NCBI GenBank assembly: GCA_963741205.1
Contig: CAVUHW010000013.1
Coordinates: 64,001-128,000, forward strand
DNA: 64,000 bases
Reading direction: 5' to 3'
Origin: Nitrospirota bacterium
Lineage (GTDB): Bacteria; Nitrospirota; UBA9217
Position 1 is the stretch's first letter. Every line of letters begins with the position of its first letter. The notes beneath the pieces are model-generated. The model worked only from the letters and a program-made list of their open reading frames with translations. It was not told the origin of the DNA and searched no databases. This document shows, piece after piece, positions 5,753-14,016 of this stretch. Position numbers and translations under genes: made by a program.

Positions 5753-6484
5753 TCATGGCAGATCATAGATTTGCCGCATCTCTTCGGAGTTTCCTCCGTT
5801 CGCTCCGTGTACAATAAGCGGCGGCAGGACCTCGATCCCGGTTCCGGCAGCCTTAACCGCCTCGATCAGCACAAGCGATGCGGGCTTGTGATGAAGGGGA
5901 TGCACGAAGCGCAAACGCTTCGGCTCAAGTTTTTTCTCCCGCATCAGCGACATCAGTTCCGCCGTGCGAGGTGCTGGGAATATGAGGAAGTATCTTCCGC
6001 CGTTTTTCAGCATTGTATGGAGATTTATCCACACATCGAGAGATGCCATCCGGTCCTGCCGCGCGGTTTGCCGTTCCGCGAAGGGGCTTGTTTTGCCTGA
6101 ACCGTATTTTGTATAGGGGGGATTCGCAACGATGACGTCGAAGCAGTCAGGTGAAAACGACCGGTCCAAATACCTGATGTCCCGACCCGCAGGGGAAATA
6201 TGGTCCTGAAGTCCGTTTTTTTCAATATTACGGCAGAGCAGGTCGTAAGCTTGCGGTTCGATCTCATCTGCAACGAAGCGGGCTTTGGGGAATTTTTTCG
6301 CGAGCAGAAGTGAGATGATCCCCGTGCCGGAGCCTGGTTCCAGAACGCTGTCCCCGGGTTTTATGCGACAAAAGTCAGCGAGGAGGATACTGTCCTGGGT
6401 AAAGCGGAAGCCCTTCTGGGGCTGCTCGATCCTCACCACACCCGCTCCGCGAAGCGAGATGCTGTCCTGGGTGACGGAGGTCAT
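5753..6484 (-). CDS. tRNA1(Val) (adenine(37)-N6)-methyltransferase-like
   Basis: QPQKGFRF..DSILLADF, EPGSGTG, ANPPY motifs. Confidence 0.85.
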   Translation of the reverse strand: MTSVTQDSISLRGAGVVRIEQPQKGFRFTQDSILLADFCRIKPGDSVLEPGSGTGIISLLLAKKFPKARFVADEIEPQAYDLLCRNIEKNGLQDHISPAGRDIRYLDRSFSPDCFDVIVANPPYTKYGSGKTSPFAERQTARQDRMASLDVWINLHTMLKNGGRYFLIFPAPRTAELMSLMREKKLEPKRLRFVHPLHHKPASLVLIEAVKAAGTGIEVLPPLIVHGANGGNSEEMRQIYDLP

Positions 6485-6873
6485 GGTATCTTTTCCACAT
6501 ACTCGGAAGGCAGCCGTTTGGGTCTTCCATTAGGATCGACATACACCATTTTGGCCCTGCATTCTGCTAAGACCCGACGGGATGTCTTCTCCCGCATAAT
6601 ATGTTCGAATATCATGGTGGCTCGGGTGACATCCCTGACCCAGGTCTCGATTTCGAGCGTGTCGCCGTACCGCGCGGGAGATTTGTAGTCTATTTCCACG
6701 CGGAGCACCATGAATATTGTGCCCTCGTTCATGAGGCCCTTGACGGAAAAACCCTTTGCCGCCAGGTACTCGGTACGCGCCCGCTCCATGTATCGGAGGT
6801 AATTGGCGTAGTAGACCACCCCGCCGCAGTCGGTGTCCTCATAATAGATATGAACATCCATGGTGTGGTTCAT
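6481..6873 (-). CDS. ybgC: YbgC/FadM family acyl-CoA thioesterase
   Basis: YYEDTDCGGVVYYANYLRYMERAR motif. Confidence 0.88.
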   Translation of the reverse strand: MNHTMDVHIYYEDTDCGGVVYYANYLRYMERARTEYLAAKGFSVKGLMNEGTIFMVLRVEIDYKSPARYGDTLEIETWVRDVTRATMIFEHIMREKTSRRVLAECRAKMVYVDPNGRPKRLPSEYVEKIP

Positions 6874-7112
6874 ATGCTCTCCCTTTGGGGAGACAGTGTA
6901 AGATATTTCCTTCGTTTTGTCGAGCGGAAGATAAAGGGGTAAGATAGTATAGGGTAGAAAGAGGAAAGAACAGGGCTGAGCACATCTCGAGCGCACAATA
7001 AACGAGCATCAAGCGATATGCAGATGGAATGCGGTATGGAGAGTCGGGAAGGACAGGCGAATGAACGCCGGGCGCTGTGGAGTACGGAGAAAGCAGTATG
7101 TATCGAAAAAGT

Positions 7113-7430
7113 AAAAAAAAGGCGCTGCCCGCGAACCGGTTTTGATATTCCGCTGAACCCCACGTTCTCCCGGAAAGTACAACCTGCTTCTGCGGCTCCG
7201 CTCTGCAGACCCTATGAAGCGTAGTGTGTGTATTGCTCTTTCCGAGCGCCGTGCGGCTTAGGGGTTTTGGCTCTTCCGTTCTTTATGGATGCCTGTAAAA
7301 CAACCGGGAGACTGGCCACTCAACTTGCAGCCCTCTTACCGGCCTCGGCGACCCATCGAGCGCGGTGCCTGATCCCCTTTAAGACGGGTTATCATCTGAA
7401 CACCTATTGGTGATGGTTCGGCAACGCCCT
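7113..7430 (-). ncRNA. putative ~310-nt structured non-coding RNA of unrecognised family
   Basis: 5' and 3' ends pair (7415-7428 with 7121-7137); internal helices present; G-U wobbles favour the minus strand; U8 tail at 7113-7120; upstream extended -10 and boxA-like motif; no credible ORF. Confidence 0.6.
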
Positions 7431-7445
7431 GTAAACTTTCTTACC

Positions 7446-7492
7446 GTTATCAAAGAACGACTTTCTGAATATTTTCTACTAATACTATACCA
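7446..7492 (-). promoter_or_regulatory. extended -10 promoter (TGGTATAGT) and downstream boxA-like GTTCTTTGATAAC
   Basis: Read on the minus strand at 7484-7492 and 7446-7458. Confidence 0.5.
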
Positions 7493-7621
7493 CATTTGCA
7501 ATGCAGTCGCGAAATTTTTTTCATATAACCCTTGCCTCTGCAGTCGACGAGGACAAGCTCCCATCATCAGAATTATCTTGACCATCAAGAGAATTGTCTT
7601 TACAATTTCATCCCGTTATAT

Positions 7622-9150
7622 ATGGTTAGGATCATTCCCTCAAAAGAAGAATTTCTCCGGAAAGCGGGGTCGAGCGAGGTCCTGCCTCTTGCCGCGGAAC
7701 TCGATGTGCAGGAGCTGACGCCGCTGGCGGCGCTCGAGGCCTTGAGACCCTCGGGATACCCCGTCCTTCTTGAAAGCGCGCGAGTGGATGGCCGGATCGG
7801 ACGATATTCTTTCGTTACCGCTGATCCATACCTGATCTTTCAATCCCGCGGCGATACGGTAGATCTTATCCTTCCAGCGACTCCCGCCGGAAAATTCGGC
7901 AGACGGGCGGCAACGAGGCGCAAACCGCTTTTAAAACTGCGGGAACTTCTGAACAACTACCGGACTGCCAGAGTTTCCGGCCTTCCTCCTTTTACCGGCG
8001 GGGCGGTTGGTTTTTTTTCTTATGACTTCGTTCATCAGCTTGAGAATCTTCCGCGCAACGCAGCTGCCGATGTTGATATTCCTGAAGCATATTTTATCTT
8101 CGTAGACCTTGTTGTTGCCTTCGACCATGTCCTCAACAAAAGTTGGGTGATCGTAAACCCCGGCGCGCGAGAACAGGAACTGGGGTTCCGGAGGCCCGGT
8201 CCGGAAGAGTGGGATGGGCTCTATGACCGGGCCGCGGCAAGACTAGTCGCCGCGATCTCAAAGCTGGACGCCGCATCACTGCGGAGCGGGGCGTCCAGCG
8301 CGGAAGCCCATCCGGCGCATAAGCGGTCTCCCTCGTTTCCAATCTGAGCCGGGCCGCATTCGAGTCGATGGTCCGGCGATGCAAGGAGTATATCGCCGCG
8401 GGAGACATCTACCAGGCCAACCTTTCCCAGCGGCTATCCGCGGCCATCGGCAACGCGGACCCGCTCCGCCTGTACCGCATCCTGCGCACTATTAATCCCT
8501 CTCCCTTTGCTGCCTTTCTCGATTTTGGCGATCTGCAGCTCGTGAGTTCCTCGCCCGAGCGCCTTGTGCGGCTCCGCGAAGGGGTCGCCGATACCAGGCC
8601 GATCGCGGGCACGCGCCGGAGGGGGACCGACCAGGCGGAGATGCGTGAACTGTCCGCCGAACTGCTGACGAACGAGAAAGAGCGCGCCGAGCATATCATG
8701 CTTCTGGACCTCGAACGGAACGACCTCGGCAAGGTGTGCGAATACGGCACCGTCTCCGTCGATGAGTTTATGGTTGTGGAGGACTACTCCCACGTGATCC
8801 ACATCGTTTCGAATGTTCGCGGTTCACTTGCGCCGGGCAGGGACGCCTTCGATCTCGTAGGCGCCGTATTTCCGGGAGGGACGATTACGGGCGTTCCGAA
8901 GGTGCGCTGCATGGAAATCATCGACGAACTCGAACCGGTGGCGCGCGGGCCTTACACCGGTTCCATCGGTTACTTCTCGAACACGGGTGATATGGACCTG
9001 AACATCATCATCAGGACATTCGTGATCAAGGACGGTCACGCCTATATCCAGGCAGGTGCAGGGATCGTTGCCGATTCCGATCCCGAACGGGAATATTTCG
9101 AGACCCTTCAGAAGGCCGAGGCACTCAAGAAGGCGCTTGAGATGCTGTAG
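7622..9150 (+). CDS. anthranilate/aminodeoxychorismate synthase component I (TrpE/PabB family); frameshift ~8340
   Basis: LLESA...GRYSF, FTGGAVGFFSYD, AGDIYQANLS, PIAGTRRRG, KERAEHIML.DLERND, GAGIVADS. Confidence 0.9.
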
Positions 9151-9210: not shown

Positions 9211-9293
9211 CATATTTCCTGCTGTCAATCCGTAAGTCCGACCTGTTTGAATCGTCGGAGCGGTCGAACGATCTTAGAGAAGGATTTTTGTTC

Positions 9294-10769
9294 ATGATCA
9301 AACTCTATAACACACTCACGGGAAAGAAAGAGGAATTTATCCCCATCAATCCCGGCAAGGTCGCTATGTACGCCTGCGGCGTGACGGTCTACGACTTTTC
9401 CCATCTCGGCCATGCGCGCGGGGCCGTGGCCTTCGACCTGATACAGCGTTACTTCCGGAGAAAGGGGTTCGACGTCAAGTACGTTCGTAACTTCACGGAT
9501 GTCGACGACAAGATCATCAACCGCGCGAAGGAAGAGGCCATCAGTCCCGCCGAGGTTGCGCATAAATATATCGCCGCCTATCAGGAGGATATGAAGCGCC
9601 TGGGCGTCGGCAGGGCGGATGTGGAGCCCAAGGCCACGGAGCACATAGCGGAGATGATCGAAGTCATCAAGGGCCTTGTGGAAAAGGAGCACGCCTATGT
9701 CGTGGAGGGAGATGTGTATTTCCGCGTGTCCAGCTTCAAGGATTACGGTAAACTCTCGAAACGAAACCTTGAGGACTTGAAGGCGGGCGCTCGCGTTGAG
9801 GTAGACGAACGAAAGCAGGACCCTCTGGACTTCGCGCTTTGGAAGGCGTCGAAGCCTGGAGAGCCAGCCTGGGACAGCCCCTGGGGTCCAGGACGGCCCG
9901 GCTGGCACATTGAGTGTTCGGCCATGGGGTTTAAACATCTGGGCGACACTTTCGACATCCACGCGGGCGGCAAGGATCTGATCTTTCCGCACCATGAGAA
10001 TGAGATCGCCCAGAGCGAGGCCTATTCGGGCAAGAAGTTCGTGAACTACTGGCTCCATAATGGTTTTGTAAATATCAACCAGGAGAAGATGTCCAAGTCG
10101 CTCGGCAACTTTTTCATGATCCGCGACATCCTGAATGAGTACGATGCCGAGGTGGTCCGGCTGTTCCTCCTGTCAACGCACTACCGCAGCCCTATAGACT
10201 TCTCGGACGCGAATTTGAAGGACGCGCGCTCCGGCCTCGACCGCTTCTACACCATGAAAGAAGGAATCATCAAGTTTCTCGCCGGAAAGGAACCGTCATC
10301 CGCCAAGCCCGAAGAGGTCGTTGAGGTAGCAGACCGGCCGCTGTATGCGAAGATACAGAACCTTCCGCAAGGCTTCGAAGAGGCCATGGATGACGACTTC
10401 AACACCGCTTTCGCCATCGGCCTCATCTACGATCTTGTGCGCGATATCAATAAATATCTTACTGAGGCGGACAAAAAGAACCAGGATGCGGCGTACTGCA
10501 TCCTGTCCTCGGCCATGGCTTCCTTTGAGAATGTGAGCAAGACCCTCGGCATTTTCCTTCGCGAGCCCGAGGAATGGTTCAAAGAGGGCAGGCTCGCCGA
10601 TGCCAAGGTCACGATTCCTACCGAGCGAATCGAAGAATACATCCACCTTCGGAACGAGGCGCGGGCCCGCAAGGACTGGGCCGAGGCGGACCGGATCCGG
10701 AAGATCCTCGATGAGGGCGGCGTGGAGCTTTTTGACCGGGCCGACGGAACGGTCTGGAAGCCGAAGTAG
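9294..10769 (+). CDS. cysS: cysteine--tRNA ligase
   Basis: [30 protein letters not shown]. Confidence 0.97.
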
Positions 10770-11869: not shown

Positions 11870-11945
11870 GCCACCGTAACTCAGTTGGTAGAGTAGCTGA
11901 TTTGTAATCAGCCTGTCGGGGGTTCGAGTCCCTTCGGTGGCTCCA
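11870..11945 (+). tRNA. tRNA-Thr(TGT)
   Basis: Cloverleaf, anticodon TGT, GGTTCGA T-loop, encoded CCA. Confidence 0.96.
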
Positions 11946-12030
11946 TTTTCCCAGTTCCGAGGATTTGAGTTTCAGCGCAAGATGATCGTGATTCCGTGGT
12001 AGAAACAATCTGCAAAGCGAGGCGGTTCCC

Positions 12031-12116
12031 GGGGAGGTGCCCGAGTGGCCAAAGGGAACAGACTGTAAATCTGTCGGCGTCAGCCTACGGAGGTTCGAAA
12101 CCTCCCCTCCCCACCA
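12031..12116 (+). tRNA. tRNA-Tyr(GTA)
   Basis: Long variable arm, anticodon GTA, encoded CCA. Confidence 0.96.
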
Positions 12117-12119
12117 GTT

Positions 12120-12187
12120 GTGAATTGCAGATCGGCGATTGCGGATTGCAAATTGAAATATTTAATCCTCAATCCGCAATCCGAAAT
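12120..12187. repeat. heptamer inverted-repeat element (ATTGCGG / AATCCGC units)
   Basis: ATTGCAG ATCGGCG ATTGCGG ATTGCAA ... AATCCTC AATCCGC AATCCGA. Confidence 0.7.
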
Positions 12188-12192
12188 AGCAT

Positions 12193-12269
12193 GCGGGAAT
12201 AGCTCAGCTGGCTAGAGCGCAAGCCTTCCAAGCTTGGGGTCGCGGGTTCGAATCCCGTTTCCCGCTCCA
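12193..12269 (+). tRNA. tRNA-Gly(TCC)
   Basis: Cloverleaf, anticodon TCC, encoded CCA. Confidence 0.96.
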
Positions 12270-12270
12270 T

Positions 12271-12315
12271 AAACCGTTCAAAAGGTTTGAACGGATCAAA
12301 CCGTTGAAACCGTTT
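12271..12315. repeat. 9-nt periodic repeat (AAACCGTTN-like x5)
   Basis: AAACCGTTC AAAAGGTTT GAACGGATC AAACCGTTG AAACCGTTT. Confidence 0.65.
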
Positions 12316-12320
12316 CAGCC

Positions 12321-12396
12321 GCCCATGTAGCTCAGTTGGTAGAGCACATCCTTGGTAAGGATGAGGTCAGCGGTTCAATCCCGCTCATGGGCTCCA
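12321..12396 (+). tRNA. tRNA-Thr(GGT)
   Basis: Cloverleaf, anticodon GGT, encoded CCA. Confidence 0.96.
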
Positions 12397-12455
12397 TGAG
12401 AAACTGCAGGACAGGATGCAAGAGTAATTTCACTTTCCAACAGGAGGCGGACAGC

Positions 12456-13656
<1,201 letters not shown>

Positions 13657-13735
13657 TTTCATTGCGAATTTCAGATTGCGGATTTCGGATTTTTTTTCAT
13701 TCCGCATATCCGCAATCCGCATTCCGAAATCAATA
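13657..13735. repeat. heptamer inverted-repeat element
   Basis: ATTGCGA ATTTCAG ATTGCGG ATTTCGG ... ATTCCGC ATATCCGC AATCCGC ATTCCGA. Confidence 0.7.
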
Positions 13736-13753
13736 TAGAGTGAGGCCATACAA

Positions 13754-13906
13754 ATGCGGGAAATCGTGCTTCTCGCTTGCGGCGAGTGCAAGCGAAAAAA
13801 CTATTCAACGACCAAGAACAAAAGAAACACGCCGGACAAGCTGAACCTGGACAAATATTGCCGGTTCTGCCGCAAACACACAGTGCACAAGGAGACAAAG
13901 GCGTAG
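13754..13906 (+). CDS. rpmG: 50S ribosomal protein L33 (Zn-ribbon type)
   Basis: Manual translation [50 protein letters not shown]. Confidence 0.95.
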
Positions 13907-13940
13907 TCAGGCAGTGAATGGCGATGCGGGGTTAGGACAC

Positions 13941-14016
13941 AGGCCAGTAGCTCTAATGGTAGAGCTCCGGACTCCAAATCCGGCTGCTGGGGGTTCGAGT
14001 CCCTCCTGGCCTGCCA
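13941..14016 (+). tRNA. tRNA-Trp(CCA)
   Basis: Cloverleaf, anticodon CCA, canonical position before secE. Confidence 0.95.

Follow-up and report, generated by a model that had tools for sequence, protein, structure and literature searches.

A structured RNA gene in the thioesterase-trpE spacer

The window analyzed here is a stretch of 64,000 nucleotides (nt) from a Nitrospirota bacterium, and its positions 7113–7492 fall in the spacer between a 4HBT/YbgC-type thioesterase gene (6481–6996, minus strand) and an anthranilate-synthase-I-like gene of trpE/pabB type (7532–9150, plus strand; trpE below). Read along the minus strand, this spacer holds, in order, the promoter-like word TGGTATAGT (7492–7484), the boxA-like word CGTTCTTTGATAAC (7459–7446), a block bounded by a long-range terminal helix (P1) and a tract of eight U residues (U8). 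Our analysis revealed that this minus-strand segment is an independent gene, the product of which belongs to a new family of highly structured RNAs (~310 nt); the features of the gene are collected in Table 1. The gene lies back-to-back with the divergently transcribed trpE in 29 of 30 loci, and its downstream neighbor varies, the nearest downstream open reading frame (ORF) of at least 90 amino acids being convergent in 10 of 23 loci. The gene that follows in the window is co-directional and begins ~117 nt past the U-tract.

Folding of the 318-nt minus-strand unit yielded a minimum free energy of −129.3 kcal/mol, compared with −104.0 ± 5.1 kcal/mol for dinucleotide shuffles (z −5.0), and none of 100 shuffles folded as well; for the plus strand of the same unit, z was −1.54 and 7 of 100 shuffles were as good. 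Across the family, G·U cells outnumbered A·C cells (277 vs. 99), an excess that fits the minus strand as the RNA strand. A consensus structure computed with RNAalifold from 22 sequences contained 72 pairs, 21 of them with compensatory double changes. When 45 distinct orthologs were aligned to a covariance model built from 22 full-length orthologs, 95.6% of the cells of this structure were paired, compared with 35–46% for slid partners, and double changes were found in 42 of the 72 pairs, compared with 16.6 ± 2.2 in shuffles (42 was reached in none of 500); this alignment, being fitted to the model, favors the structure, and a MAFFT alignment of the 22 sequences gave the same helices. A refined structure of 85 pairs was 92.1% paired and displayed compensatory changes in 50 pairs vs. 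22.0 ± 2.6 in shuffles. The preliminary description of the locus, made from its sequence, had named homologs and covariation as a check on its proposal of a structured RNA, and both were found, with orthologs present in most genomes of the lineage.

The two ends of the RNA are joined by P1, of which 97.6–99.1% of the cells were paired and in which nine base pairs are invariant, paralogs included; the pair at alignment columns 15/412 changes from A-U to G-C in 10 of the 45 sequences. This terminal helix had been predicted from the single sequence and was recovered at the same place, 7430–7415 with 7137–7119, with U8 at 7120–7113. The P2 hairpin, likewise predicted (7412–7409 with 7404–7401), was confirmed in position, and in the paralogs it reads CACU...AGUG, a compensatory change. 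In P3, one pair changes from A-U to G-C in four sequences. Of the two large domains, Domain A ends in a long hairpin with changes on both sides in 11 of 14 pairs, and the AAGUUGA loop of this hairpin (7320–7326) is strongly conserved among the trpE-linked orthologs. Domain B comprises an outer helix (7249–7258 with 7156–7164), a CGGRAAG/CUUYCCG helix, an unpaired A/C-rich linker at ~7221–7234 and a hairpin (7186–7220) bearing a conserved G·G mismatch; the GCUUC/GAAGC helix proposed earlier was borne out, with 97.8% of its cells paired in the 45 orthologs. Throughout the RNA, invariant positions are common in junctions and loops.

Other helices read from the single sequence did not survive the comparison of the same 45 orthologs. 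Measured against yardsticks of 92–96% paired cells for the consensus structure and 33–47% for slid controls, the ACCCGUC/GAUGGGU helix was paired in 67.6% of cells, the supposedly perfect 8-base-pair helix UCUCCCGG/CCGGGAGA in 58.7%, the AACCCC/GGGGUU pseudoknot in 56.7% and the GCUC-GGAAA-GAGC helix in 43.9%, and none of them is conserved. All four can form in the window's own sequence, and other pairings replace them in the family. The AAUACACACACUAC tract, which had been suggested as a binding or template segment, is indeed unpaired, but its sequence differs between genera, and it is therefore not a conserved template; it may be a species-specific pairing segment.

The RNA was detected in a single lineage

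A blastn search identified one copy of the RNA in the organism's own genome and full-length relatives of 68–83% identity in 31 of 36 genomes of the same taxonomic family, while none of 24 genomes of other families matched. With the covariance model, matches were found in 62 of 64 family genomes, among them all 32 high-quality genomes, and in all 19 genera; a high-scoring copy (at least 126 bits) was present in 59 of the 64, and the RNA body of the window scored 321.8 bits. The five genomes without a high-scoring copy are also without an orthologous trpE locus in their assemblies: their best chorismate-binding match was of 58–59% identity in two and absent in three, compared with 78–90% identity for the C-terminal half of trpE across the 27 loci where it was detected. 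Since no genome beyond these 64 is added when the scope is widened from the family to the order or the class, the lineage corresponds to a class made up of one family.

In a sample of the phylum, the model matched 27 of 27 family genomes and none of 123 genomes from 21 other families, under strict filters and with 11 candidates per genome, so that weak relatives could escape. An exact pattern of the 5′ end (22 specified bases), searched in one genome for each of 185,579 species, matched 27 records, all titled Nitrospirota, Nitrospirae, Nitrospiria or Nitrospiraceae. The preliminary description had pointed to Nitrospirota and Desulfobacterota as the groups in which to look for homologs; the motif-bearing records support the former name, and none is titled with the latter. 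Multiple members were also seen at single loci: three stand in tandem beside trpE in genome G015 (L075:11010–12212), two of them ortholog-like and one paralog-like, and two ortholog-like copies lie 3 kb apart in genome G016 (L076:4001–7243).

Comparison with known RNA families and coding potential

At gathering thresholds, the 4227 models of Rfam 15 identified only five tRNAs in the whole window (11870–14013), a plus-strand cluster located downstream of a cysteinyl-tRNA synthetase gene (9288–10769). When the expectation value (E) was relaxed to 10, the interval 7000–7600 gave two noise matches, which reached 14.7 and 11.6 bits where 45 and 60 were required. Twelve diverse ortholog loci displayed no match within the RNA at E up to 5, and five paralog loci gave nothing above threshold. 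The earlier statement that the RNA belongs to no recognized family is thus upheld by the Rfam comparison of the window, the orthologs and the paralog loci alike.

The same description had set the RNA apart from four housekeeping RNAs, and each of these was found above cut-off elsewhere in all five genomes searched, the window's own included: RNase P RNA (RF00010, 265–280 bits), 6S RNA (RF00013, 85–106 bits), transfer-messenger RNA (tmRNA; RF00023, 194–205 bits) and a small signal recognition particle (SRP) RNA (RF00169/RF01854). RNase P RNA, tmRNA and SRP RNA had no match at the locus, and the consensus fold obtained here is multi-branched, which speaks against 6S RNA. As all four are located elsewhere, the locus represents a fifth conserved RNA. 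A Y RNA was also considered and removed, since the gene for its partner Ro60 (Rsr; TROVE domain, PF05731) was found in none of the five genomes, with the Deinococcus and Bacteroides controls detected, and no Y RNA match was obtained. Sequences were further read by eye for TRAP-like triplet repeats, CsrA-type GGA loops, a kink-turn and a GNRA tetraloop with its 11-nt receptor, all of which looked irregular or not co-varying. No description of this RNA was found in the literature searched. As a separate observation, the organism's own genome bin (G000) contains two RNase P RNA matches above cut-off, C10:64992–65363 (274.7 bits) and C15:24401–24835 (232.5 bits); the second may come from a contaminating organism (stated contamination 4.94%).

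The spacer had been described as having no credible ORF. Mechanical ORFs of 57–103 amino acids do overlap the region, but there is no sign of coding: three overlapping ORFs that were tested had no Pfam match, 318 of 347 indels among the orthologs are not divisible by three (29 are), and the longest stretch free of stops varies between 40 and 108 codons without a constant frame. A protein-coding gene was therefore rejected.

The RNA in public RNA libraries

Twenty public runs contain part of the stretch (shares of at most 0.19), 14 of which are recorded as RNA and derive from seven studies. Four RNA runs, each from a different study (soil, rice paddy), provided contigs that were matched to the window at 85% likeness or above. 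In these, cover was restricted to bins 7116–7439, with 7440–7466 added in one run, and depth was zero over 6900–7115 and 7467–7700 in all four, neither flanking gene being covered; contig depth was near zero upstream of 7439. Peak summed word depths were 160, 2350, 30 and 7495, and 0, 2, 1 and 16 contigs, respectively, were at least 99% alike to the window. Zero depth in the flanks is weak evidence, because the diverged flanks of relatives would not align. The RNA appears to be abundant in environmental RNA libraries. The transcript that the preliminary description proposed to look for is seen as contigs confined to the unit, which give neither its strand nor its true ends.

In run X7, two adapter-like loose ends, which we take to be sequencing adapter, abut 7125 and ~7458, the latter at the upstream edge of boxA. 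A 184-nt contig of the same run (depth 46.8, ~84% like the window) joins 7437 to 7132 head to tail with one extra letter, and could represent a reverse-transcriptase template switch at a 5′ end, a circular form or a chimera.

The leader carries a promoter and a boxA-like element

A first survey of 29 ortholog upstream regions revealed an extended −10 element ~45–70 nt, and the motif (G/T)TCTTTGA(A/C)A 20–30 nt, before the conserved 5′ end. In a script count, the extended −10 ended 40–75 nt upstream of that end in 44 of 46 ortholog rows; together with TGGTATAGT in the window, this supports the earlier claim that the RNA has its own promoter, from which transcription would start at about 7476–7477. 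The word TCTTT[GA] was found within 70 nt upstream in 39 of the 46 rows, and TCTTTC in six more, all from genus g18.

The rRNA operons of the lineage provided a direct comparison. In all eight genomes examined, their boxA, GGTCTTTGAAAAC, precedes the 16S gene by ~120–135 nt, and TGTTCTTTGACAAC is present in the 16S–23S spacer of both genomes inspected (G000 and G002). The RNA-leader motif, the 16S leader and the 16S–23S spacer have the core TCTTTGA in common, in agreement with the boxA-like element that had been noted in the leader. A 13-nt degenerate boxA motif occurs at four sites in the 4.27-Mb genome, namely the rrn leader, the rrn spacer, the RNA leader and a position ahead of an Amt-like gene, and we estimate its chance expectation at below one. 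The fourth of these sites (G000:C8:174472, plus strand) lies ~60 nt upstream of the ORF of the Amt-like ammonium transporter and may be either another Nus target or a coincidence. By its sequence, the RNA-leader motif is an rrn-type boxA and a candidate NusB/NusE site.

We also considered whether boxA is common to the stable RNAs of this lineage. TCTTTGA stands 10 nt before the RNase P RNA of G000 and was absent in four of four relatives; it was taken as a chance occurrence, and the boxA leader is therefore not general to the lineage's stable RNAs. The gamma-proteobacterial boxA consensus GYTCTTTAANA, given in a survey of boxA targets, is close to the leader motif, and that survey left non-coding RNAs out of consideration (PMC5725501). 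No paper on a boxA ahead of a small stable RNA was found in the literature searched, and the supplementary tables of PMC5725501 may list more boxA sites.

Paralogs differ from orthologs in their transcription signals

The covariance model also identified paralogs in ~20 of the 64 genomes; these are full-length, far more divergent members (24–80 bits) that keep the invariant termini and the overall architecture. At least six U residues occupy the first 8 nt past P1 in 45 of 46 ortholog rows, which together with U8 in the window confirms the U-tail described earlier, and in 7 of 19 paralogs. A separate G+C-rich hairpin with a T-run ~45–60 nt past P1 was detected in 3 of 46 ortholog rows vs. 15 of 19 paralogs, and an extended −10 ending 4–14 nt before P1 in none of the ortholog rows vs. 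11 paralogs (with three more at 17–23 nt). A transcribed boxA-like word was present in 39 ortholog rows, plus the six variants, and in no paralog; two paralog boxA-like words sit upstream of the −10.

The paralog of the organism's own genome (G000:C8:51054–51370, equal to L060:4001–4317, minus strand) scored 48.5 bits and is without P2. It adjoins a UDG-family gene and an ImpB-like fragment and is syntenic with a copy in genome G007 (L068). Across genomes, the neighbors of the paralogs are unrelated (UDG, ImpB-like, radical SAM, PRTase, prismane, IS110 transposase, NmrA and DUF72). The units of one group, type B, measure ~460–520 nt, are 80–88% alike between genera and sometimes have one flank in common. 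Type B paralogs (L061–L072) also share a conserved block of ~90 nt upstream of a −35/−10 promoter (e.g. L062:3910–4000), which may be a regulator binding site.

Table 1. Features of the RNA gene on the minus strand, in the order of transcription (window coordinates)
Feature	Position	Strand	Remarks
Extended −10 promoter (TG-n-TATAGT), TGGTATAGT	7484–7492	minus	read directly from the sequence
boxA-like leader element, CGTTCTTTGATAAC	7446–7459	minus	seen in ortholog leaders and in the lineage's rrn leader/spacer
Variable purine-rich leader spacer, from boxA to mature 5′ end	7431–7445	minus	sequence not conserved
Conserved RNA body, ~310 nt	7121–7430	minus	alignment conservation begins and ends sharply at these limits
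P1, 5′ strand, opening with GGCGUUGCCGAACC (7428–7415)	7415–7430	minus	partner 7119–7137
P2 hairpin, CACC-AAUA-GGUG	7401–7412	minus	98.3% of cells paired
P3, 5′ strand, UGAUA-A-CCCGU	7383–7394	minus	partner 7143–7154; 87.0% of cells paired
Domain A, nested helices ending in a long hairpin (7302–7344)	7261–7378	minus	helices 5–11 of the refined structure
Domain B	7156–7258	minus	helices 12–16; helices 15 and 16 paired in 97.8% and 98.1% of cells
P3, 3′ strand, containing the nearly invariant CGGAAU	7143–7154	minus	partner 7383–7394
P1, 3′ strand, with a 3-nt bulge	7119–7137	minus	partner 7415–7430
U8 tract directly 3′ of P1	7113–7120	minus	P1 and the U-run form the putative 3′-end signal

Beside the RNA gene, trpE occupies two reading frames in the window (7532–8347 and 8368–9150, plus strand), and in relatives such as locus L002 its N- and C-terminal parts share one frame. 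The split is probably an assembly indel rather than the mark of a pseudogene, because the Amt-like gene on G000:C8 also looks frame-broken.

A model for the biogenesis and role of the RNA

The covariation, the lack of any Rfam match and the confinement of the RNA-library contigs to the unit uphold the core of the preliminary description, namely a stand-alone, stable and large non-coding RNA. On balance, we favor a new RNA family whose independent gene undergoes boxA/Nus-assisted biogenesis and whose mature product acts in trans, likely as the core of a housekeeping ribonucleoprotein (RNP). According to this model, transcription would start ~50 nt upstream of the RNA body at the extended −10 promoter, near 7477, and the rrn-type boxA in the leader would recruit NusB/NusE and the rest of the antitermination complex. 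This complex would shield the untranslated transcript and would keep the 5′ leader at the polymerase, such that the 5′ strand of P1 would be at hand when its 3′ strand emerges ~290 nt later. P1 and the directly following U7–8 would then end transcription, after which the leader would be trimmed back to P1. For rRNA, tethering of boxA to NusB was proposed to promote formation of the leader–trailer helix (PMC10250234). The split observed between orthologs and paralogs in boxA and in terminator type agrees with what the biogenesis model would lead one to expect.

Several observations weigh against this interpretation. The genomes of one lineage are related, so the counts given above are not independent. 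A consensus promoter scan identified no −35/−10 pair for the unit, and an intrinsic-terminator scan of 6900–7700 returned no site, since the U-run follows a long-range helix closing ~290 nt and not a local hairpin. Antitermination complexes are expected to resist terminators, which is awkward for P1 and U8 as an end signal. The leaders of genus g18 carry TCTTTCT, while the 16S leaders of that genus keep GGTCTTTGAAAAC in five of five; the RNA-leader motif therefore does not track the rrn boxA exactly. Duplexes between leader and trailer average −12.5 kcal/mol vs. −11.7 kcal/mol for mismatched pairs (permutation p 0.034) and are strong in few loci. The contig depths are summed over relatives and cannot show strand, true ends or level. 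Finally, no protein partner is encoded beside the RNA, and the neighbors of the paralogs are unrelated to one another.

The chief competitor is a regulatory decoy or sponge, comparable to 6S or CsrB, which would titrate a protein such as RNA polymerase, a Nus factor or a translational repressor. Its appeal lies in the apparent abundance of the RNA in RNA libraries, in the presence of several paralogs per genome with strong promoters of their own, as for 6S-1/6S-2 or CsrB/CsrC, and in a terminal helix that is invariant between paralogs, as expected of a protein-binding site. However, the multi-branched fold with its many invariant junction nucleotides is neither a rod with a bubble nor a set of repeated loop motifs, all five genomes have a canonical 6S RNA at another place, and GGA motifs, counted by eye, are not enriched (~6 in 318 nt). 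We thus regard a decoy as improbable: the size of the RNA, its invariant junctions, its near-universality in the lineage and its apparent abundance speak more for an RNP core or a catalytic RNA. A mobile-element RNA (guide, bridge or omega type) or a miniature inverted-repeat transposable element (MITE), of which the trpE-linked copy would be a domesticated form, appears more improbable still. At the DNA level, the termini are indeed a perfect inverted repeat of 9 nt, the paralogs occur in varied contexts (one, L066, ~520 nt from an IS110-family transposase), the type B units combine their length and their likeness between genera with sharp borders, and one genome has three tandem copies. Yet the main copy keeps its orthologous, syntenic position in 19 genera, copies found in one genome differ by ~50% instead of being near-identical, and their surroundings show no recurrent gene for a nuclease, recombinase or reverse transcriptase. 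With both of its ends engaged in P1, the RNA has no free guide; pattern scans of viral_contigs gave six and zero matches, none of the six fitting the covariance model, and a type B unit searched by blastn had no match among plasmids and phages. Flanks are shared by some type B and type C copies, a sign of vertical descent. For a MITE in particular, blastn finds one copy in the genome, the second member being seen only by the covariance model (48.5 bits), and the conserved unit of the paralogs runs past the inverted repeat into the promoter block.

A cis-acting leader or riboswitch for the thioesterase gene or for the divergent trpE, with P1 and U8 as a regulated terminator, would account for the short distance to the same-strand next gene in the window, for the resemblance of P1 and its U-run to a switchable terminator and for the retention of the trpE linkage in nearly every locus. 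This explanation is hard to credit, since the closest ORF downstream lies on the other strand in 10 of 23 loci, transcription runs away from trpE (the strand following from the fold z-scores and the G·U vs. A·C counts), 15 of 19 paralogs end at their own hairpin terminator, and the RNA contigs stop at the unit in four studies. We infer that the RNA is not a cis-regulator. The faintest prospect is that of a very divergent form of a known stable RNA (RNase P, 6S, tmRNA, SRP, Y RNA, or OLE/ROOL/GOLLD/raiA), several of which it resembles in size and in its paired 5′ and 3′ ends; no Rfam family was found at E up to 10 in the window, below-threshold noise aside, or up to 5 in the 12 orthologs, the four housekeeping RNAs score above cut-off elsewhere, and TROVE/Ro60 is found in none of the five genomes.

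Returning to the trans-acting RNP core that we favor, its function is possibly tied to ribosome synthesis or translation. A bolder form of the proposal, which we put forward tentatively and hold to be rather doubtful, is that the RNA founds a new class of bacterial housekeeping RNA, being a ribozyme or RNP core restricted to the class-level lineage. Its synthesis would borrow the machinery of rRNA: a boxA-loaded Nus complex would tether the 5′ leader, allowing a helix that spans 290 nt to close, and the helix together with the U-run would serve as the terminator.

Relation to known systems and significance

In its promoter-proximal boxA, its untranslated structured product and its ends that pair over a long distance, the gene resembles an rRNA operon leader served by the Nus-factor antitermination complex (rrnTAC). 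It differs in that the product is a 310-nt RNA outside any rrn operon and in that a leader–trailer helix beyond P1 is weakly supported. Like 6S RNA, the product appears to be an abundant and stable non-coding RNA with paired ends, and two paralogs are likewise known in some bacteria; unlike 6S RNA, it is branched and not a rod with a central bubble, and the canonical 6S RNA stands elsewhere in the organism's own genome (105.6 bits). The precursors of 4.5S/SRP RNA, tmRNA and RNase P RNA have paired mature ends and are cut from a longer primary transcript. The present RNA shares the paired mature ends, whereas those three RNAs are present elsewhere.

With OLE, ROOL, GOLLD and the raiA motif, the RNA has in common a large and intricate fold, conserved junctions and loops, restriction to a lineage and apparent abundance. 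OLE measures ~610 nt, ROOL and GOLLD are larger still, and all exceed the ~310-nt RNA. In contrast to these families, to which Rfam gave no match, it is without a conserved partner gene at its side, and it resides on the chromosome and is near-universal in its lineage, neither patchy nor prophage-borne. To our knowledge, large and intricately folded bacterial RNAs are rare, and nearly every class with a known function is a ribozyme, a riboswitch or the core of a fundamental RNP. Large ornate RNAs such as OLE, ROOL, GOLLD and raiA are suspected to be ribozymes or RNP cores, and some form RNA-only assemblies (PMC12286853, PMC11332333).

Among the genomes searched from an entire class of uncultured soil and groundwater Nitrospirota, almost every one carries the RNA described here, and nothing curated in Rfam matches it; the covariance model now allows its annotation in metagenomes and metatranscriptomes. 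The boxA-bearing orthologs, with P1 and a U-run, and the boxA-less paralogs, with a hairpin terminator, together offer a testable model of a long-range helix as an end signal. The rrn-type boxA in the leader suggests that antitermination and chaperoning by Nus factors are used outside rRNA, for a small stable RNA. If true, the RNA would be without known precedent among small stable RNAs in its dependence on rrn-type antitermination, and P1 with its U-run would represent a new way of building an intrinsic terminator.

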